Of a stretch of 64,000 nucleotides of DNA, positions 913 through 55,898 are shown in pieces. Position 1 is the stretch's first letter. Every line of letters begins with the position of its first letter. A model generated the notes under the pieces. It was not told the DNA's origin. It searched no databases and saw only the letters and a program-made list of their open reading frames with translations. A program made the position numbers and the translations under genes. Source of the stretch: an uncultured delta proteobacterium (GTDB lineage: Bacteria > Myxococcota_A > Polyangia > Polyangiales > Polyangiaceae); assembly GCA_963839305.1 (NCBI GenBank), contig CAWIUL010000011.1:2441561-2505560 (forward strand), read 5' to 3'.

Positions 913-3444
913 TCAGCCGCCGAGTTGTGAGAGCAGCTCGCGCGCGCGCTCGAGCGTGTGGTCCTCGTCGATGGCGCGCTTCAGGAGCATCGCGGCCTTC
1001 TTCGCGTCGCCTTGGTGCATCGCGATTTCGCCGAGGCGCTCGTACGCGACGCCCTTCGAGATCGGCGCGGCGGTGCGGAGCATCGTGATCGCGCGGAGCG
1101 CGCGCGTCGCGAGGTCGAGCTCTCCCTCCGCGAGCGCGACGTGGGCGAGCTCCGACGCGACGATGCCGTTCTGGCCGTCCATGTCGAGCGCGAGGGTGAA
1201 CGCTTGCATCGCGCCCTTCGGGTTGCCGAGCGCCGTCTCGAGGCGGCCGAGGCGCAGGTGGATCTGCGCGAGGTCGCGCGAGCGGCGGCCTTTTTGCGCG
1301 GCGACGCAGGTCTGTAGGAGCTCGCGCGCCTCGTCGAAGCGCTGCGCCGCGATGTGCGCGTCCGCGAGGAGGCCCGTGCACTCCATGTCGGCGGGCTTGA
1401 TGGCGCGCGCTTCCTCGAGCGCGGACGCCGCGGCGGCGGGGTCTTGCTCGAGGAGCGTCGTGCCTGCCGCGACGAGCATCTCGAAGCGCCGCGCGGGGTC
1501 GGTGGCGGCGCGCGCTTCGGCGAGGCGGAGCTCCGCGAGCTCGCGGTGCGCGCCGATCGCCGCGTAGACCGCCGAGAGCTTCTCGAGCACGCGATCGTCG
1601 GTGGGCGCGGCCGCGCGGGCCCGCTCGAGCGCATCGCGCGCATAGCCCGGGTTCTGCGCTTGCGTCGCGGCGTCCGCGAGCTTGAGCGCGACCTCGACGA
1701 GCTTTTCGCCCGACTCGAGCTCGAGCAAGCGCGCGTACGTGTCGCTCGCGGTGTCGAAGCGGCCCGCCGACTCTTCGAGGCGCGCCATCGCCCAGAGGGT
1801 CTCGGTGTCCGCGTCGTCGACCGAGAGGAGCAGCTCGAGCTGCGCGTGCGCCTCGTCGAGGCGGTTCGCGGACGCGTAGAGCTCGGCGACGCGGCGACGG
1901 AGCGCCTTCTGCGCGCTCGCGTCGGCCGTGGTGTCGGCGGCGCGCGCGAGGACCGCGAGGAGCAGATCGCGACCGCCGTTGGGATCTTGCGCGTGCACGC
2001 GCTCGGCGTCGGCGATGGCTTCGTCGTTTCGACCGAGGCCGACGAGGACTCGCGCTCGCGCCGCGAGCACGTATGGATCGGGCGCTTTCTCCGCGAGCGC
2101 GCCGAGCTCGCTCGCGGCCTGCTCGTCGCCGCGACGCTCGAGCACCATCACGAGCCCCGCGAGGATCTCGCCATCGTTCGGGTCGATGTCGTACGCCGCG
2201 CGATACGCGCGCGCCGCCGATTCGACCTCGCCGAGCTCCGAGTAGAGCCCAGCAGCGGAGAGGAGCTCTGCGCGAGCGCGAGCGGGATCGAGCGCGCGCG
2301 CGGCGGTCTCCTTGAGCGCGGCGAGCTTGCGACGATCGCCGCGGTCTTCGTAGATCGACGCGAGGCGGTTTCGCAGCTCGACGCTGCCCGGATACGCCGC
2401 GATGCCGATTTCGAGCGTGCGCTCGACGCCAGCGTCGTCCCACTGCTCCGCGCGGAACGAGACGAGCTCGAGGGCGAGCTGCTCGGCGGCATCGCCCTGC
2501 TCGGTCTCGAGGAGGCGCTCCATGAGGTCGGCGCGCTCGGCCGCGTCGCCATCCTCGAGGAGCCTTCGCATCGCGAGGAGCAGCGAGCGGTTCTTCGGCT
2601 CCCAGTCGAGACCGGAGACGTAGAGCTCACGCGCGCGCGGGCCATCGCTCGACTCGATGATCGACCCGAGGCGAAGCGAGAGCACGGCGACCCCAGAACC
2701 GTCCTGGCGATCTTTGGCGGCGTCGAGCTGGCGCTCGAGGAGCGCCGCGAGCTCGCTCGTCTCGCCGGCCGCTTCGAGGAGCTCCGCGAGGAGCGCGACC
2801 GCGTGTGCGTCGTAGGGCTCCTCGTCGAGGAGAGCGCGAAGGTCCGCGATCACCTCGTCGCGGCGCTCGGTCTTGGTCGCGAGGACGCGCGCTCGCTCGC
2901 GACGGAGGGCGCGGCGCTCGGCTTCGTCGGTGACGGAGGGTAGGAGCGCCTCGACGATCTCGACGAGCGCGTCGGCGTCGCCGGTCGTTCGAAGGAGCTC
3001 GAGAAGCCCGGCGCGCGCGGACGCGTCGCTCGGATCCGCGAGGGCGATCTCGCGCCTCGCGCGGAGCTCGATCGCGACGTCGCCGATCTGACGAGCGCGT
3101 GTCGCGACGCCCTCGCGCAAGCGACGCGCGCCTTCGAGGTCGCAGTGCGGTCCCGCCTCGAGCTCGAGCGCGAGGCCTTCCGCGACTTCGCCGCGCGCCG
3201 ACGCGAGCGCCGCGAGCTCGAGGAGAGCCCAACGGAGCACCTCGCTCTCGCCTCGCGCTTGCGCGACGACTCGGCCCAAGAACGCCTCGGCGCGCTTGCC
3301 GTCGCCGGCTTGCAGCATGAGCGTCGCCGCCTCGCGCAGCGTCGCGAGAGACGCGCCTTCGTCTTCGGCCTGGAGCGTCACGGCGCGTTGGACGAGGTCG
3401 GGGCGTCCGGTGAGGCGCGCTGCGCGCACGAAGACGTCGAGCAT
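913..3444 (-). CDS. giant TPR/solenoid repeat protein, C-terminal segment (probably continuous with the two upstream segments)
   Basis: 843-aa ORF rich in A/L/E/R helical repeats with TPR-like periodicity. Its frame stays open upstream of the first Met, and the upstream ORF reads as junk from ~3465, so a frame break is likely. Confidence 0.6.
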   Translation of the reverse strand: MLDVFVRAARLTGRPDLVQRAVTLQAEDEGASLATLREAATLMLQAGDGKRAEAFLGRVVAQARGESEVLRWALLELAALASARGEVAEGLALELEAGPHCDLEGARRLREGVATRARQIGDVAIELRARREIALADPSDASARAGLLELLRTTGDADALVEIVEALLPSVTDEAERRALRRERARVLATKTERRDEVIADLRALLDEEPYDAHAVALLAELLEAAGETSELAALLERQLDAAKDRQDGSGVAVLSLRLGSIIESSDGPRARELYVSGLDWEPKNRSLLLAMRRLLEDGDAAERADLMERLLETEQGDAAEQLALELVSFRAEQWDDAGVERTLEIGIAAYPGSVELRNRLASIYEDRGDRRKLAALKETAARALDPARARAELLSAAGLYSELGEVESAARAYRAAYDIDPNDGEILAGLVMVLERRGDEQAASELGALAEKAPDPYVLAARARVLVGLGRNDEAIADAERVHAQDPNGGRDLLLAVLARAADTTADASAQKALRRRVAELYASANRLDEAHAQLELLLSVDDADTETLWAMARLEESAGRFDTASDTYARLLELESGEKLVEVALKLADAATQAQNPGYARDALERARAAAPTDDRVLEKLSAVYAAIGAHRELAELRLAEARAATDPARRFEMLVAAGTTLLEQDPAAAASALEEARAIKPADMECTGLLADAHIAAQRFDEARELLQTCVAAQKGRRSRDLAQIHLRLGRLETALGNPKGAMQAFTLALDMDGQNGIVASELAHVALAEGELDLATRALRAITMLRTAAPISKGVAYERLGEIAMHQGDAKKAAMLLKRAIDEDHTLERARELLSQLGG

Positions 3445-6400
3445 CGCGCGCGTCGCGCGGCCGCCAGGAAATCGCCCCGTCCGCGATCGTCGCCGCGCGC
3501 TCCGCGTCGGGAGCGAGGTCGAGCGCGGTCGAGAGCGAGCGCGCCGCGTCGTCGACGGTCGCGTCCTTGCGCGCGCGAAGGTCCGCGAGCCTGTAGAGGA
3601 TGTCGCTGGCAGCGCGCGGGTCGCGCGACGTGCTCTCGACCTCGAGGGCCGCGAGCTCCGAGAGCGTGGCCTCTTGGCTCTCCGCGTCGCCGAGCGTCGC
3701 GTAGACGCGATCGAGCGCGCGGAGCACGTCGACCGCCATCGCGCCCGTCTTCTTCGCGCGCACGAGGATCTCCGCCGCGCGAGACGCGCCGCCCTCCGAG
3801 CGCGCGAGCGCGTCGCCGGCCCGCAAGAGGAGCGAGCACGAGGTGCGCGCGTCGTTCGACGCGGTCGCGCGGTCCGCGAGCGAGGTGACCGTCTCGATGT
3901 ACGCGTCGGTCTTGCCGAGCTTCGTCGCGAGCGCCATCGCGGCGTCGTGCGCGGGCGCCGACGACGGAACCTCCGCGAGCGCGTCGAGGTACGCGCGAAG
4001 CGCCGCCTCGTGATCTCCGAGCTCGTCGTGCGAGCGCGCGAGCTCTGCGAGCACCTCCGCGCGAGCCTCGGACGACTGCGCGCGCTCGAGCCGCGAGCGG
4101 AGCGAGCGCAAGAGCCCCTGCGTGTTTCCCCGCGTGCGGAGGGCCTTCTCGAGCCGCTTGGCCTCCGCGTCGGACGTCGCGGCGGTCTCGAAGGCGGACT
4201 CGATGATCTCCGCCGCGCGCTCGGGCTCGCCCTGACGCTCCGCGAGCGCCGCGAGCTCCACGAGCACCTCGGTGCGAAGCACGGGCGCGTCGTCCTCGGC
4301 GCGTCGCACGACGGCGAGCAGCGCGCGATACGAGCGCTCGGCCTTGTCGAGCTGCCCGTCGTCGCGCGCGAGCTCGGCGACCATGCGCAAGATCTCCGGA
4401 TTGGCCGGATCGATGCGCGTCGCGGCCTCGAGCTCCGCGAGCGCCTGCGCGCGCTCGCCGATTCGGAGGTGCAATCGCGCGAGGTAGAAGTGGACGGTGG
4501 CGCGCTCCTTGGGGCGACGCCCCGCGAACGCGTCGATCATCTCGCGCAAGAGCGCGCGCGCGCGATCGGGGCTCCCGGCGTCTTGCAGCGCCTCGGCGAG
4601 GCGGAGCTTCAGCGGGCGATCGTCGGGCGCGAGCGCGCAGGCTTGCTCGAGCAGCGGCACCGCTCGATCCGGCTGCGCGCATCGACCGAGGAAGATATCG
4701 GCGGCCTCGACGAGGAGCGCGCGGCGATCGGCGTCGGTCTTGGCGCCCTCGGCTTGACGCGCGATGAGCTCGCCGAGCGGCGCGAACTGCGACGTGCGCC
4801 GGTAGATGGCCGCGAGCCGCTGCGCGACGTCCGCGGGCGAGCTCGGATCCGCCATCGCGGCTTCGAGGCGCTCTTGCGCGGCGTCGTCGCGGCCGCCCTT
4901 CGAGAACGCGTCGGCGAGGCGCACGATGACCGCGGCGCGCTGCTCGGGGAACTCGCGCACGAGGCGGTCGAGGTTCGCCGCAGCGTCGACCCACTCGGAT
5001 TGGTGCTCGTGGATGCGCGCGATGGCGTCGAGGAGCTGCGCGCGAAGCTCGAGCGCGAGCGCGCGTTTGTAGTGCGAGAGCGCGAGCGCCCAGTGACCGA
5101 GCTTCTCTTCGGCGATGCTCGCAGCGCGCGACCAGAGCTCGACCGCAGAGAGCGCGTCGCCGTCGGCCTCCGCGAGCCCCGCTTGCTCGGCGCAGAACGC
5201 CGAGAGCTCGTCCCAGTGCCCTGCGCCTTCGAGCGTCTCCGAGAGGACGAGCGTCGTTCGCGCGTGGCGCGGCGCGTCGACGAGGTTGTCCCGCAGGCTC
5301 GTCGTGGCTTCGTCGATGCGACCGAGCTCGCGCTCGAGCAACGCGGCCTCCAGGCGGTGCGCGACGCGGACCGCGGCCTCGCTCGCGACGGCGATCTGCT
5401 TCTTGCGAACCGCGAGGAGATCGTCCTTGCGTCCGAGCGACGCGTAGACGTCCGCGAGGCGAGACGCGGCCTCGTCGTCGCGAGGCTCCTCTTCGAAGAG
5501 CCGCGCGTAGAGGCGCTGAGCGGCCTGCGCGTCGCCGACGCAATCGAGCGCGGTGCGACCGGCCTCGTGGAGCAGCTCGCGCGAGCGCTCGCGCGTGAAG
5601 GGCAGCTTGGCTGCGCTCTCGAGGAGCTCGACGATCCGCTCGGCGTTGCCCTCTTCGTTGTGGACGCGCAAGAGCTCGGCGAGCGCCCACTCGACGTGCT
5701 CGCTCGGATGTCCCGACGGACCCACGCTCGGAGGAGCTTCGCCCGGCGACAACGTGGCCGGCGCTTGCTCGTCGGACGACGTCCACCGCTCGGACGCGAG
5801 CTTCAAGAGGCGATCGAGGATGCTCTTGGCGAGCCCGCAATCGACGACGACGCGCGCCGCGACCTCCGCGGCCTCGTGCAGGAGCTCGGGATCGCCGCCC
5901 GTGGCTTGCGACAGGCGCAAGAGGCTGTCGATCAGCGGACGTCCGCGGTGACGGCGCTGGAGCTGCGCGAGCTGCGCGAGCAAGCGCGTGTCGTTCGGGT
6001 CGTGCGTGAGGGCGCGCGCGTACGCGGCCTCGGCGGCCTCGGCGTCGGCGCGGCGGTCACGGTGCCACGTCGCGAGACGCGCTTCGAGATCGCGCGCGGC
6101 CTCGCGCGGGAGCTCCGTGCGCTGCGCGATGGCAGCCTCGAACGCGGCGGTGAGCGCGTCCCACCCCGCGTGCGCGGACGCCGCGTCTTCGAGCGCGTGA
6201 ACGAGCGTCTCGTCGGGTCCACCGCCGGCGTCCGAATCGCGCCGCCGCTCGGAGGCGGCGACCGCGCGATCGAGCACCAGCGTTGCCGCGGCGTCCCACC
6301 GGGCGACGCGCCCAGCGACGCGGATCAGCGAGAGCGCCGCGTCGGCGTTCGTCGGCTCGTCGTTCGCGACGCGCGTGAACTGAACCAGCGCGCCGCGCGG

Positions 6401-45356: not shown

Positions 45357-46426
45357 ATGAAGCGATTTTTTTCGTTCGCCGTCTTCGCCCTCTTCACGCT
45401 CGTCTCCGCGAGCGCCCTCGCCGACAAAGTCGCAGTCCTTCCGTTCTTGGGAAGCGCGACGAAAGAGCAGCTCGACGCCGCGCGCCTCGCGACGCAGGGC
45501 GCGGTCATCGCGAAGGGCAACACGCCCGCGACCGAGTCCGAGCTCGTCACCGCGCAGACCGCGGTGGCCGACGGCGTCGCCGACACGAAGAACGAGTACC
45601 AAGCCGCGGGCCGCGCCTCGAGCTCGCAGTGGGTCGTCGTCGGGCACGTCACGCCGCACCCGACGAGCCCCATCAAGGGCGCGTACCGCGTCGAGATCGA
45701 GGCGTGCCAGGTCGACAGCGGCCGCGTCGAGTCGCTCGCGCGCGAGATCGATCCCTCGAAGGCGAACGCGCAAATCGCGGAGATGCTCGCGCTCCTTCTC
45801 CGCCCCGAGGGCCTCGCGAACGCCGAGATCCCCTGGGAGAACGAGGTCGTCAAACCTCCGCCTCCGCCTCCGCCGCCGCCTCCTCCTCGCCCCCGCCCCC
45901 GCCGCCGCCTCCTCCTCCGCCTCCGAAAATCCCCGAGCCCGATCGCGGCTACGGCATCCACGCGCCATGGGCCTTCGGATTCGGCGTCGGCGTCAACGGC
46001 GCGTTCGTGCACCCGACGGGCGGTTTTGGGTTCTCGACGTTCGCGTTCCTCGGCACGCTCACGGGCGAGTACGCGCCGCTCTCGGACGAGAAGTATCCGC
46101 AGATCCTCCGCGGGCTCGCGCTTCGCGCCGACTTCGGCGGAAACCTCTACGGTCCAGGCGCGGTCCAGCTCGACGTCGGCGGCCGCTGGGCGATCCCGAT
46201 CGTGCCGAAGATCCGGCTCTTCGTCGGCCCCGAGGTCACGATCGGCGGTTTCTTCGTGACGACCGGCGACAAGCAGGCGCGCTTCCTCCTCCGCACCGAC
46301 GCGTTCGCGTCGATCGGCTTCGGAGAGCACGTCCAGCTCGAGGCGGCGTTCGACGTGCAGAGCGCGTTCGGCGGAGAGGCGATCGTCGTCGGCGGCGCGA
46401 TGGTTCGCGCGCTCTATCGTTTTTGA
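45357..46426 (+). CDS. secreted/outer-membrane-type protein with poly-Pro linker; frame break inside the poly-Pro tract (~45880)
   Basis: Signal peptide MKRFFSFAVFALFTLVSASALA. After (P)12-14 the frame switches to ...GYGIHAPWAFGFGVGVNG...RALYRF (C-terminal aromatic). Confidence 0.5.
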
Positions 46427-49427: not shown

Positions 49428-53408
<3,981 letters not shown>

Positions 53409-53414
53409 GACGGG

Positions 53415-53519
53415 GCCGTCTCCGTCCGTCTCCGTCTCCGACTCCGTCTCCGTCTCCGTCTCCGATCCGTCTCCGTCTCCGTCTCCGCTCCGCTCCGAAT
53501 CCGAATCCGAATCCGGGGG
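53415..53519. repeat. (CGTCTC)n hexanucleotide microsatellite (~12 units) followed by (CGAATC)3
   Basis: Direct tandem units immediately after the TGA of the kinase/ATPase gene. Confidence 0.75.
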
Positions 53520-53520
53520 G

Positions 53521-53570
53521 TCGTGCTCGGCTTTCGAAGCCTTCGGCGTCGCCGCCTTCGGCGGTGCTGC
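53521..53570 (+). terminator. two consecutive UUCG-tetraloop hairpins
   Basis: ggcttUCGaagcc and cgccUUCGgcgg. Confidence 0.4.
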
Positions 53571-53645
53571 GCATCCTTGACAGGGCCTGCGCGCGACGCG
53601 GGTGGGCGAGGGTCCGAGCACGAATTCGGACGATGGAGGTTCGTC

Positions 53646-53960
53646 ATGCTGAGGATTTATTCGTTCATCATCGAGACGCTTCGAAAGGTTGCTCCGGTCG
53701 TGCGTGCCATTGGCAAGCACGACCCGGATCTCGCGCGGCAGCTGCGGCGCGCCGCGAGCAGCATCGCGCTCAACACCGCCGAGGCGGTTGGGTCTCACGC
53801 CGGCAACGAGAAGGCGCGGTTTCGGACGGCGCTCGGCTCGACGCAAGAGACGCGCGCTTGCCTCGACGTGGCCGAGGTGTTCGGGTACGTCCAGACTGAC
53901 GCGCAGCTGCGTGACGATCTCGATCGCATCGCGGCGACGCTCTTCCGGCTCATCGAGTGA
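53646..53960 (+). CDS. four-helix-bundle protein (23S rRNA intervening-sequence protein / Avd-like family)
   Basis: DLARQLRRAASSIALNTAEAVG...RFRTALGSTQETRACLDVAE typical of PF05635. GGATGGAGG RBS. Confidence 0.7.
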   Translation: MLRIYSFIIETLRKVAPVVRAIGKHDPDLARQLRRAASSIALNTAEAVGSHAGNEKARFRTALGSTQETRACLDVAEVFGYVQTDAQLRDDLDRIAATLFRLIE

Positions 53961-54267
53961 GTCGGAAGAGCACCGCGCAGACCACGTCGAGCTTTGCGAG
54001 AATCGCGATATCGATCGCGTCGACGTAGCGAAACGCCCCCGCAACGTCCAGGCAGGCGCGCGTCTCCTTCGCGGAGTTTAGCGCGACGTTGTAGAGCGCC
54101 TTGCGATTGCCGCCGCGCGCGTAGCTTCCTTCGGCGACGTTCAGGACGACGCTACTCGCAGCCCTCCGCAGCTGCCGCGCAAGATCGGCATCCCGCCGCT
54201 CGATCGTGTTGATCACGCTCCGCAGCAGCTCGAGCATCGCAATCGCATCGTCATAGATCTTCAGCAT
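53950..54267 (-). CDS. four-helix-bundle protein paralog (23S rRNA IVS / Avd-like), convergent and 3'-overlapping
   Basis: MLKIYDD...DLARQLRRAASSVVLNVAEGSYARGGNRKALYNVALNSAKETRACLDVAGAF. About 50% aa and ~80% nt identity to its neighbour in inverted orientation. Confidence 0.7.
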   Translation of the reverse strand: MLKIYDDAIAMLELLRSVINTIERRDADLARQLRRAASSVVLNVAEGSYARGGNRKALYNVALNSAKETRACLDVAGAFRYVDAIDIAILAKLDVVCAVLFRLTR

Positions 54268-54420
54268 GATGAGCTCCTTTCGCCCTCGCGAGGGCGAAGC
54301 CCTCCCGCGCCGCGCGCAGGACGGGTCAAGGCTCGGCGAAGCCGACCGCCGCCGCAGGCGGCGGCTTGGCCTTGACCCGTGCGAGCACGGCGCGAAAATC
54401 GATCAGCCGAGCGAGCACAC

Positions 54421-54460
54421 CCCTCCGTCTCCGTCTCCGTCCCCGTCTCCTTCTCCTCTT
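54421..54460. repeat. second (CGTCTC)n-type microsatellite tract, same orientation as 53415..53519
   Basis: CCGTCTCCGTCTCCGTCCCCGTCTCCTTCTCC. Confidence 0.65.
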
Positions 54461-54493: not shown

Positions 54494-55898
54494 ATGGAGA
54501 TGGCGCGCCGTCTTCTTTGCGCTCGCCCTCGGTGTGGCGGCTTGTCAGGCGCCCTTGATTGGGCGTGACGGCACGGTCACATTTCCAGAGCCGGGCGCGC
54601 ACGGGGCGGCGGTCCTCACGGCGAACGGGATCCAGTTTCGCGATCGCGCAGATCTGCCCCAGCGCGTGGTGCGAAAGACGACCGACGAGCCCTGGCGCGC
54701 GCCCGTTGGGTTCATCTTGCCCCGCGATGGGCATTTCACCGAGACGAGCAAGCCCACCGTCGTGGCGATGGCTGGGCTCGCGTTCGCGCTTCGTCCGAGC
54801 GACCAGCGCGTCCCGTCTTGGGGCGGCGAGGTCCTCGTTCGAGTCGACGTGATGTCGCCAGCGGCGCAAGGCACGGCTCGCCTCGGCGAGAACATCGTCA
54901 TCGTGCTCGACGGGTCGGGGATGGACTCGATCCTCCTCGCCGAGGACGTGATCGCGCAGACCGGACTCATACGATCGCATCGCGGTCGTCGACGCGACCG
55001 ACGCGAAGCTCGTCGTCCCGCTCATTCCGGCGAACCACCGATCGCTCGCGGAGGCGGCGATCGAGAAGCGCCTCCGCACGTCGGTGCGCGATCAACGCGA
55101 TCTCGGCGCGGCGCTCCGGTTCGCGCGCACGGTCATCGGCGTCGGGCCACATCGTCGCGTCGTCGTGCTCAGCGACGGCGCGGTGCACCCTCGAAGGGCG
55201 CGCTCGACGTCGCGGGCGAGCTCGCGCGCGCGGGCGTTCCAATCAGCGTCATCGGGACGCGCGCGGGCGTGAGCGGCGACGACGCCATGGCGATCGCGCA
55301 GAGCGGCGTCATCGCGGTCGCCGACGACGTGGCCGCGCGCGAGAAGGTCGTGCCGATGGCCGTTCCGCCCGCTGGCGAGGTCGTCTTCCACGACGTCGTG
55401 CTCTCGTTCGCGGGGACGCCGGCTCCGTCGCACGTGCTCGAGACGTCGGGCGGCGGCGTTCGGTGGCGCGTCGACTCGGGCGAGCTCTTGCTCGGCGACG
55501 TGATCGCGGGCGAGGCGCGCACCGAGGTCGTGCGCGTGACCGTGCCCGCGTGGGTTCCCGGATCGGCGTTCACGTTCACGGTGACGGCGACCGCGAAGGA
55601 CGCGAAGTCTGGCGCGCCGCGGATGTTCAGCGCGACGATCCCGTGCACCTACGACGACGACATCGAGCGCATCGCGCAGTCACGCTTCGGCGACGTCATC
55701 GCGTACGCCTCCGCGCTCGCGACGCTCAAGCGACTCGACGCAGCGTTCATCGGCGACGACGTGGCGCGCGCGGGCGGGCTCTGGCAGGTCGCGTGGCTCC
55801 ACGCGAACTCGATGACGCTGCTCGCGCGAGACACGCACGACCGCGCGATCACCGAGCAGGCGGAGATCCTGCGAGCGCTGCTTCTGGCGACCAAGTAG
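54494..55898 (+). CDS. vWA-domain lipoprotein (frame breaks ~54515, ~54960, ~55195)
   Basis: MEMARR.FFALALGVAAC lipobox signal. MIDAS IVIVLDGSGM. A third-frame stretch reads ...RFARTVIGVGPHRRVVVLSDGA before the main frame resumes. Confidence 0.55.

Follow-up and report, generated by a model that had tools for sequence, protein, structure and literature searches.

A hexamer-bounded pair of PF05635 genes in an uncultured Polyangiaceae genome and its dispersed relatives

The locus, its genes and their products

We analyzed a stretch of 64,000 nucleotides from the genome of an uncultured delta proteobacterium of the Polyangiaceae (assembly GCA_963839305.1, contig CAWIUL010000011.1, positions 2,441,561 to 2,505,560), referred to here as the window, and all coordinates are those of the window unless another locus is named. 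Between two housekeeping-type genes there is a 1,049-bp insertion (53409–54457) that carries two small convergent genes, ORF A and ORF B, each coding for a four-helix-bundle (4HB) protein of the PF05635 family, with a structured element (SE) in the arm upstream of each gene and a hexanucleotide array at each outer end. The locus is very probably one copy of a dispersed, insertion-polymorphic intergenic cassette family of Polyangiaceae, which are soil myxobacteria. Its main parts are as follows.

53416–53515, + strand: left hexanucleotide array, (CCGTCT)n with CCGACT, CCGATC and CCGCT variants and (CCGAAT)3 at its end
53516–53645, + strand: A-side arm with a degenerate SE, as compared with 70 upstream regions
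53646–53960, + strand: ORF A, 104 aa, A-type PF05635 four-helix-bundle protein
53950–54267, − strand: ORF B, 105 aa, B-type PF05635 four-helix-bundle protein, convergent with ORF A
54268–54305, − strand: B-side leader, from sequence and fold
54306–54394, − strand: B-side SE, intact, an inverted repeat
54395–54422, − strand: conserved spacer between SE and array, with the GCTCGCTCGG motif (+ strand 54407–54416), kept in most arms
54423–54456, + strand: right hexanucleotide array, CTCCGT x5.7, on the same strand as the left array

The two genes are arranged tail-to-tail with an overlap of 11 nt and their products are 50% identical over 103 aa (E 1e-30), in agreement with the coordinates, convergence, overlap and approximate identity reported in the initial annotation of this DNA. 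The inverted similarity of about 80% that it described between the arms is also evident, as 56 nt at 80% in the DLARQLRRAASS region and another 63 nt at 75%, and it reaches both upstream regions (33 nt at 85%; 53575–53607 with 54299–54331). The left array begins 8 nt past the stop codon of the upstream gene, and Tandem Repeats Finder (TRF) reports it as CCGTCT x14.5 (53416–53497) and TCCGAA x3.7 (53494–53515); the TRF assignments place both tracts on the same strand, and they are thus in direct orientation as first described. The right junction was placed by alignment with three other loci (L065, L059 and L062; see below). There are fourteen matches in the window to (CGTCTC)3 with up to three mismatches where 0.61 are expected (a 20-fold excess), twelve of which are in the two tracts, and the remaining two are single three-mismatch matches elsewhere. 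A further period-6 tract in the window (45855–45925) was rejected as a candidate; it is a coding poly-proline stretch and is unrelated to the cassette.

Both proteins match PF05635 above its gathering score of 33.8 (49.2 bits for ORF A and 48.0 bits for ORF B), with a PDB profile match to 2gsc (E 1.6e-6), and AlphaFold2 (AF2) predicts a confident helical bundle (pLDDT 93.7 for ORF A). The best structural matches found by Foldseek are BT_0352 (2rld; TM 0.87) and Xcc0516 (2gsc; TM 0.79), and Avd, the accessory protein of diversity-generating retroelements (DGRs), is matched as well (4dwl/8ub7; TM 0.70–0.79) but with E 0.1–0.8 and 10–14% identity. The family score, the model and the Foldseek match to Avd together uphold the earlier assignment to PF05635 and an Avd-like fold. 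The PF05635 family has a motif GxxRxxxSxxxNxxE (PMC3936711), and both ORFs have R35-x3-S39-x3-N43-x2-E46, which is invariant in the family alignment, with the leading G changed to Q in this subfamily. Among paralogous copies within one genome the ratio of non-synonymous to synonymous substitution (dN/dS) is 0.05–0.2 at dS 0.2–0.7 for both genes, with values of 0.05–0.4 for A-type and 0.02–0.3 for B-type copies; both genes are thus kept by purifying selection in many paralogous copies, and the low ratios at these distances indicate that the copies are old and that each has been kept functional.

We note that no reverse transcriptase (RT), transposase or integrase is encoded among the plausible ORFs with high third-position GC content (high-GC3) in the 36–64 kb part of the window, or in the syntenic locus L059, so that the earlier remark that no RT lies nearby holds. 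There is no IS110 gene in the 64-kb window, PADLOC finds no defence-system match, and there is no rRNA match in the region; the genes sit between two protein-coding genes and not in an intervening sequence (IVS) of 23S rRNA.

Orthologous sites, dispersed copies and hexamer arrays

The gene downstream of the cassette has many orthologues, and four of the orthologous sites are informative. In the closest contig (83% identity) the same upstream gene is kept and the two genes are separated by a gap of 61 bp with no cassette. In L059 (71% identity) the gap is 77 bp, again with no cassette, and the whole gene order is kept (kinase-AAA16-TPR, lipoprotein, CtaA, a 230-aa gene, and a fatty acid (FA) hydroxylase). 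In L065 there is a solo (CCGAAT/CCGTCT)x21 array at the site, on the same strand, and its end is at the CTTGCGGGAAGG junction that also bounds the right array of the window, such that at this junction the two genomes differ by the cassette together with a second array. Finally, in L062 (3535–3810) and L063 the site is filled by an unrelated AT-rich long palindrome of ~280 bp that resembles a miniature inverted-repeat transposable element (MITE), and the site is therefore an insertion hot spot. From these states of the site we conclude that window 53409–54457 is inserted DNA in an intergenic hot spot. The suggestion in the initial annotation that the locus resembles an inserted module is thus sustained by orthologous sites lacking the cassette, by the solo array at the junction, and by recurrence of the unit elsewhere, and the syntenic comparison also reveals array length polymorphism at Sorangium loci (see below).

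A scan of species-representative genomes gave 58 loci, all in Polyangiaceae or close relatives, and a search with ORF A gave 1,766 relatives, nearly all of them 104–106 aa in length, many on very short metagenome contigs, and one identical to ORF A. The source contig itself (3.65 Mb) carries further paralogues (P0001 at 96% and P0009 at 82%). By blastn, window 53415–54456 aligns from array to array with 13 of the 58 loci, at about 70% nucleotide identity over about 1,050 nt, and nothing beyond the arrays aligns. The metagenome-assembled genome (MAG) CAVXQJ01 has at least ten copies that are 80–93% identical to each other and have unrelated flanks, with the homology extending from about 2763–2792 to about 3861–3906 (locus coordinates), which is also array to array. 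Several of the CAVXQJ01 copies have internal deletions or frameshifts, and in the decayed copies B survives more often than A. In L013, L042, L044, L048 and L049, which are decayed CAVXQJ01 copies, gene A is deleted or frameshifted and gene B is intact and under purifying selection.

Convergent pairs are present in about 30 of the 58 loci, including those in Sorangium and Byssovorax. The A and B partners are 46–50% identical in most lineages and the A/B split is therefore old; in two lineages partner identity is 73–75% or 64–66%, so that tail-to-tail pairs must have arisen more than once. B orthologues in other copies are 65–68% identical to ORF B. The building block common to these loci is a period-6 microsatellite, a spacer of about 45 nt, an SE of 90–150 nt, a hairpin and Shine-Dalgarno (SD) sequence, and a PF05635 gene of 104–105 aa, and the 1.05-kb cassette is a tail-to-tail pair of such units, with an array at either end. 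Two parts of the initial description need adjusting in this light. The palindrome, which had been viewed as an inserted or duplicated module, is inserted but is not a local duplication, as A and B diverged long ago and the split is also found in Sorangium and other genera; and although arrays are indeed present at both ends of the pair, they belong to the individual gene units, each of which has its own array, as do single genes. The same architecture recurs in more than 30 loci in independent assemblies (Illumina isolates, long-read MAGs, and four complete Sorangium genomes), and the hexamer tracts are therefore not assembly artefacts.

A period-6 array is found no more than 500 nt upstream in 56 of the 72 complete units, with a median distance of 208 nt from array end to ATG, and array density is 1.61 per kb upstream of the units compared with 0.107 per kb across the other 279 kb of these loci. 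The arrays end 78–312 nt upstream of the start codon and are outside ORFs. Their period is constant, and the unit is mostly of the form CCGNNN and is lineage-specific (CCGTCT, CCGACT and CCGAAT in the window and CAVXQJ01, CCGCTT in Polyangium, CCGCGT and CCGCAT in Sorangium, and CCGAGC in Byssovorax), with up to 47 copies in the longest arrays. The order of variants at the inner edge, ...CCGAAT-CCGGGGGG, is common to the window and to copies in another genome, and at least the inner part of the array has therefore been inherited with the cassette. Array length does vary: at one orthologous Sorangium locus, with flanks 85–95% identical, the left array has 19, 40, 24 and 34 copies, and the right array has 43, about 29, and 17 copies in the three loci where it is detected by TRF. 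Among the pairs with both arrays, 19 of 22 have them in direct orientation, though the core is palindromic.

In single units there is an array on the SE side only and in either orientation, and we therefore rejected the possibility that array orientation is fixed relative to the gene. We also rejected a general role of the array as a Rho-utilisation site or terminator for the neighbouring gene, since the strand of the array does not follow the orientation of the flanking genes. In addition to its solo array, L065 has a single B-like 4HB unit (2048–2624) with a GGGCGT x6 array directly after the stop codon of an HTH_8 ORF (sigma-54 activator C-terminal); the unit runs into the next gene and there is no second array. 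In L028 (Polyangium jinanense; 1440–1800, 3363–3466, and 4009–4141) CCGCTT-type arrays are also present between non-4HB genes, two of them followed by the same GGTCTAGCGTTTCTACC, and there is a tandem palindromic repeat of ~60 nt ahead of a gene. We note that (CCGTCT)4 is also present in more than 120 viral contigs in IMG/VR, with GC contents of 35–70%. In the 80 of these that were examined (L066–L145) it is nearly always within ORFs, often of ~300 aa, with no 4HB gene or SE there. Because it falls inside ORFs we interpret it as a recurrent dipeptide repeat in phage proteins, and the hexamer alone is not diagnostic of the cassette.

Another arrangement is seen in Polyangium, where a 4HB gene is followed by a convergent gene that resembles those of extracytoplasmic function (ECF) sigma factors, bounded by a bidirectional terminator hairpin (L018 3313–4165, with homologous arrangements in L058, L030, L022, L046, L031, L027 and L023). 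In L018 the ECF-sigma-factor-like gene lies between two convergent 4HB genes.

In the window, the upstream neighbour is a large kinase/AAA_16/TPR-type gene with its stop codon at 53406–53408, and the downstream neighbour is a lipoprotein-like gene whose conserved leader starts at 54458 in the host sequence CTTGCGGGAAGG. The lipoprotein-like gene has no in-frame ATG; its sole in-frame start is a TTG at 54459 that abuts the array, and an ATG at 54494 is one base out of frame. Either the TTG is an unusual start made beside the insertion, or there is a 1-nt assembly error.

The structured element and its association with IS110-family elements

A common layout was seen in all 70 of the upstream regions compared, consisting of the array, the GCTCGCTCGG spacer, helix P1, loops, helix P2, a small hairpin, the SD and the ATG. 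P1 is 7 bp, the internal loop is TGCTC on one side and TGCGCG on the other, and P2 is 14 bp with the core TCAAGG/CCTTGA and encloses one to three GC hairpins. The corresponding positions in the window are these.

53523–53530: A side, GTGCTCGG
53574–53587: A side, 3′ half of P2
53588–53593: A side, loop TGCGCG
53594–53600: A side, 3′ half of P1
53612–53631: A side, small hairpin
53635–53639: A side, SD GGAGG
54274–54279: B side, SD, reading CTCCTT on the + strand
54279–54298: B side, 10-bp hairpin TTCGCCCTCG/CGAGGGCGAA
54388–54394 with 54306–54312: B side, P1
54383–54387 and 54313–54318: B side, internal loops TGCTC and TGCGCG
54369–54382 with 54319–54332: B side, P2, enclosing two GC hairpins
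54372–54399, + strand: outward sigma-70-like promoter match, TTGACC-16-GAAAAT (1 found, 0.1 expected)

On the A side the 5′ half of P2 has been lost and the fold z-score is only −1.9; on the B side the minimum free energy (MFE) fold gives P1 and P2 with a z-score of −3.9. The promoter-like match overlaps the B-side SE and, as judged from its sequence, would be directed through the right array to the downstream gene; TTGAC(G/C)-16/17-GAAAAT is kept in the B-type arms of other cassette copies.

The pairing was evaluated in 36 distinct SE copies, with the helix strands located by their loop motifs and by the P2 core box (its 5′ half, e.g. CAAG), and never by pairing. In these, 91.3% of the cells are paired compared with 68.0% when shuffled, and 15 of the 21 pairs have changed on both sides. 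The covariation score is 0.518 as against 0.117 for the shuffled set, none of 500 shuffles reaches 0.518, and controls in which the partner strand was slid give 0.04–0.13. The SE is thus a conserved Watson-Crick-paired structure. Its mismatches include four G-T and 16 C-A or A-C, such that the pairing is almost purely Watson-Crick; this is a weak hint at the antisense strand or folded DNA, and the active form may be either RNA or folded DNA. Neither the cassette nor the SE copies have a match in Rfam. In the 420 kb of genome sequence examined there are 61 SEs, and each of them has a 4HB gene at most 200 nt downstream. The TGCTC and TGCGCG loops do not vary between lineages whose array units differ, and 7–9-mers of the array unit show no excess in the arms over those from units of other lineages, a comparison that has low power for guides of 4–6 nt; the SE is therefore unlike a programmable guide for the arrays.

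The SE is also found outside of the family. A metagenome scan with an SE pattern that does not require P1 pairing gave at least 120 matches, and the counts that follow are among the matches listed. P1 pairs at six or seven of its seven positions in 96 of 119, the contigs are of 52–70% GC, and at least eight of the SEs precede a 4HB gene. Thirty of the 112 with upstream sequence are directly downstream of a transposase gene, of which 17 are of the IS110 family (in three clades), eight are helix-turn-helix (HTH)-type transposases, four are rve, and one is IS1595. The 17 IS110-linked SEs begin no more than 38 nt, and mostly 14 nt, past the end of the transposase match. Other SEs follow genes for a PIN toxin, a DUF3363 protein or a SEC-C/TPR protein.

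In one IS110 clade, cross-sample homology spans ~1.6 kb, with one limit shortly ahead of the transposase gene and the other ~440 nt past the start of the SE. The SE is therefore inside an IS110-family insertion sequence (IS), in which it lies 13 nt past the stop codon of the transposase gene. Downstream of the SE in these elements come GGTCGGGACGAAGGAAC...GAACAAAGGAAC, an SD, and a conserved ORF of two codons (ATG-ACN-TAG), which takes the place that the start of the 4HB ORF has in the cassettes. Elements with an SE include those in L195, L196, L209, L237 (7664–8106, SE-oriented in the reverse complement), L246, L247, L252 and L265, among others, and the same 185-nt module is also found on its own (L296). 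In the IS110 elements the two-codon ORF is followed by about 250 nt of non-coding sequence, also conserved, with no Rfam match. The association is two-way, as there is also an IS110-family element inside the SE of a 4HB unit in L057 (1099–2925), between TTCAAGGC and CAAGC, and a remnant of the left end of the same IS within the SE in L008 (about 2770–2900). In published work the region downstream of the transposase is where the seek or bridge RNAs of IS1111-type elements are located (PMC11187229), and ISPpu9 has a passenger module downstream of its IS110-family transposase that also has unlinked copies and its own circles (PMC12288879).

Mobility of the cassette and alternative explanations

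Our overall interpretation, which we regard as evenly poised between right and wrong, is of a non-autonomous cassette that is gained and lost by array recombination and served by a recombinase in trans, with proteins that act on the SE. It would be either a selfish or a semi-domesticated element. That gain and loss occur by recombination within the hexamer arrays is a strong possibility, if a little short of an even chance. Recombination between two direct arrays would excise a circle and leave a solo array, and the circle could re-enter any array with a similar unit, which would explain the direct arrays around a palindromic core, their unequal and variable lengths, and the solo array at an empty site. 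Spread to new sites would probably use a recombinase supplied in trans. By analogy with ssr9 and ISPpu9, the foremost candidate would be an IS110-family DEDD transposase that helps in trans through the common SE module, although we consider such help rather unlikely. It is possible, if on balance somewhat unlikely, that the Avd-like A and B bundles act on the SE of their own cassette; they would bind it either as an RNA leader or as folded DNA and so control expression or aid recombination.

There are several observations that weigh against such a mobile cassette. We see no circle junction, no excision event, and no recent near-identical pair of copies, and the orthologous locus that holds the pair in Sorangium is stable; with copies that are old and this locus stable, the family may be largely immobile today. 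Transposase, integrase and RT genes are not seen in the window (ORFs of 36–64 kb), and there are no solo arrays of the (CGTCTC) unit elsewhere in its 64 kb. Array-unit matches of 7–9 nt are not enriched in the arms, which gives no sign of an RNA guide that reads the arrays. Three pairs have inverted arrays (L005, L025 and L043), and the one-sided array of single units is not predicted by simple integration of a circle into an array. Lastly, the link to IS110 is not exclusive, since the SE also follows transposases of unrelated families and a PIN toxin, and the SE could be simply a hot spot resembling the repetitive extragenic palindromic (REP) sequences.

The main rival is a domesticated host gene family whose products are unremarkable small regulatory or nucleic-acid-binding proteins, expanded by ancient duplication and immobile, with hypermutable arrays that adjust the expression of the 4HB gene or of a neighbour by effects of the contingency or promoter-distance type. 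That the copies are old and under purifying selection (dS 0.2–0.7) fits this well, as do the stability of the Sorangium locus, at which array length alone changes, and the fixed distance of the arrays upstream of the start codon (median 208 nt). The pairing of a Polyangium gene with a convergent ECF-sigma-like gene also suggests a regulatory role, and the outward promoter-like site faces an array. However, a domesticated family does not sit easily with a site that is empty in close relatives and has a solo array at the same junction, with homology between copies that ends precisely at the arrays and gives way to unrelated flanks, with the existence of decayed copies, or with an SE that is common to insertion sequences. 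Switching of expression by array length is known for tracts inside ORFs or between the −35 and −10 boxes, and the arrays here are in neither position. We regard this explanation as doubtful, although it is the most serious of the competitors.

Mobility could alternatively be programmed by RNA, with the cassette as a passenger of IS110-type elements, the SE as part of a bridge or seek RNA, and the arrays as programmed target or donor sites. The SE is in the 3′ non-coding region (NCR) of IS110-family elements, as are the seekRNAs of IS1111-type elements (PMC11187229), there is a precedent for a passenger module (PMC12288879), and the cassette is flanked by direct arrays of one unit type with lineage-specific units. 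We nonetheless consider it improbable, as the SE loops do not change across lineages in which the array units differ, array-unit k-mers are not enriched in the arms, the sole IS110 insertion observed is at the SE apex and not in an array, the SE also follows transposases of other families, and the window has no IS110 gene. An orphan DGR remnant, in which Avd genes remain after loss of the RT and template repeat, is prompted by the fold shared with Avd (TM 0.70–0.79 to 4dwl and 8ub7) and by PF05635 being the Pfam family most commonly associated with DGRs (PMC10053308). It is very improbable given that there is no RT beside the copies examined (window, L059 and L028), that the best structural matches are to the non-DGR proteins 2rld and 2gsc, and that this is a multi-copy family with its own conserved leader and arrays. 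Last, the source contig is metagenome-assembled, and palindromes and microsatellites are prone to assembly error, but a local inverted duplication or an assembly artefact is refuted by the recurrence of the architecture in more than 30 independently assembled loci, including those of four complete Sorangium genomes.

Returning to a non-autonomous cassette that recombines at its arrays, there are similarities to known systems. Proteins of PF05635/TIGR02436, a family named for 23S rRNA intervening sequences, have the same sequence family, fold and motif and likewise are found as small inserts between unrelated genes; members are known inside rRNA intervening sequences and wedged between cas genes, whereas here they are not in an rRNA gene and are accompanied by a leader element, a hexamer array and a convergent partner in a dispersed, multi-copy cassette. 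Avd of BPP-1 (4DWL/8UB7) has the same four-helix-bundle fold, but the loci examined here have no RT and neither a template nor a variable repeat, and the proteins are in A/B pairs. Avd binds a structured RNA of its retroelement, which suggests that the 4HB proteins here may bind the SE. The ISPpu9-ssr9 system of Pseudomonas putida (IS110) has a small non-coding module downstream of the transposase gene together with unlinked copies that are presumed to use the transposase in trans, and the SE-long module is found in the same two states; in the cassette, however, a protein gene and a microsatellite are joined to the module, and neither ends of the A/B-box type nor circles were seen. In the metagenome IS the SE adjoins a transposase as does the IS110/IS1111 bridge/seek-RNA module, whereas the cassette in the window has none, and the guide loops complementary to the flanks that characterize that module are not seen in the SE, whose loops are invariant.

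The SE also resembles REP sequences, REPINs and bacterial interspersed mosaic elements (BIMEs) in being an extragenic imperfect palindrome with conserved mismatches and a target of an IS110 element (L057), as REPs often are of IS110 and IS3 elements, but it is longer (90–150 nt, with two helices and inner hairpins) and is always attached to a 4HB gene (61 of 61 in 420 kb). Integron cassettes with their attC sites likewise combine a small promoter-poor ORF with an imperfect palindrome of 60–150 nt, probably folding single-stranded, and are gained and lost as units. The core boxes of the SE are of opposite polarity to those of attC (GTCAAGG...CCTTGAC and not RYYYAAC...GTTRRRY), the palindrome precedes the ORF, the cassettes do not form a single array but are scattered, and there is no IntI among the ORFs of window 36–64 kb. 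In contrast to MITEs and classical IS, which have terminal inverted repeats (TIRs) and a target site duplication (TSD) of fixed length and, in an IS, a transposase of their own, the ends are direct microsatellites of unequal length and there is no transposase. Array length varies as in contingency loci, but the arrays are outside ORFs, 78–312 nt upstream of the start codon. The rice element Micron and other eukaryotic elements that target microsatellites are embedded in, and flanked by, a simple-sequence repeat; in comparison, the cassette described here is bacterial, is protein-coding, has a palindromic core, and has a repeat unit that changes with the lineage of the element.

A PF05635 protein, an extragenic palindrome, an IS passenger and a microsatellite are each known, and it is the combination and its regularity that are new. 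Within the searchable papers we found no description of PF05635 cassettes bounded by microsatellites, of hexamer arrays in myxobacterial intergenic DNA, or of the SE. Outside of DGRs, few bacterial proteins of unknown function are as common as the 4HB proteins of PF05635, which have long been suspected to be on mobile DNA (in rRNA IVSs and cas inserts), with no element defined before. This locus supplies one whose ends are clear and whose cis structure is conserved, with empty and solo-array sites, and the cultured hosts Sorangium and Polyangium carry the family and allow it to be tested. The SE is widespread, is not in Rfam, and is common to the cassettes and to the non-coding ends of IS110-family (bridge/seek-RNA) elements. 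The gene family is also linked with period-6 microsatellites in which the unit drifts and the period is kept, and we found no such bacterial link in the literature. An extension of our interpretation that is speculative and probably wrong is that the arrays are both made and used by the element as expandable attachment sites, which would grow and shrink at the base of the SE, either by out-of-register recombination or by cycles of insertion and excision, with the SE as a new structured module coupling stand-alone PF05635 proteins to IS110-type recombinases. If it were true, this would be the first gene cassette in bacteria to home to microsatellites, and the large orphan PF05635 family would be the accessory factors of a class of mobile DNA.

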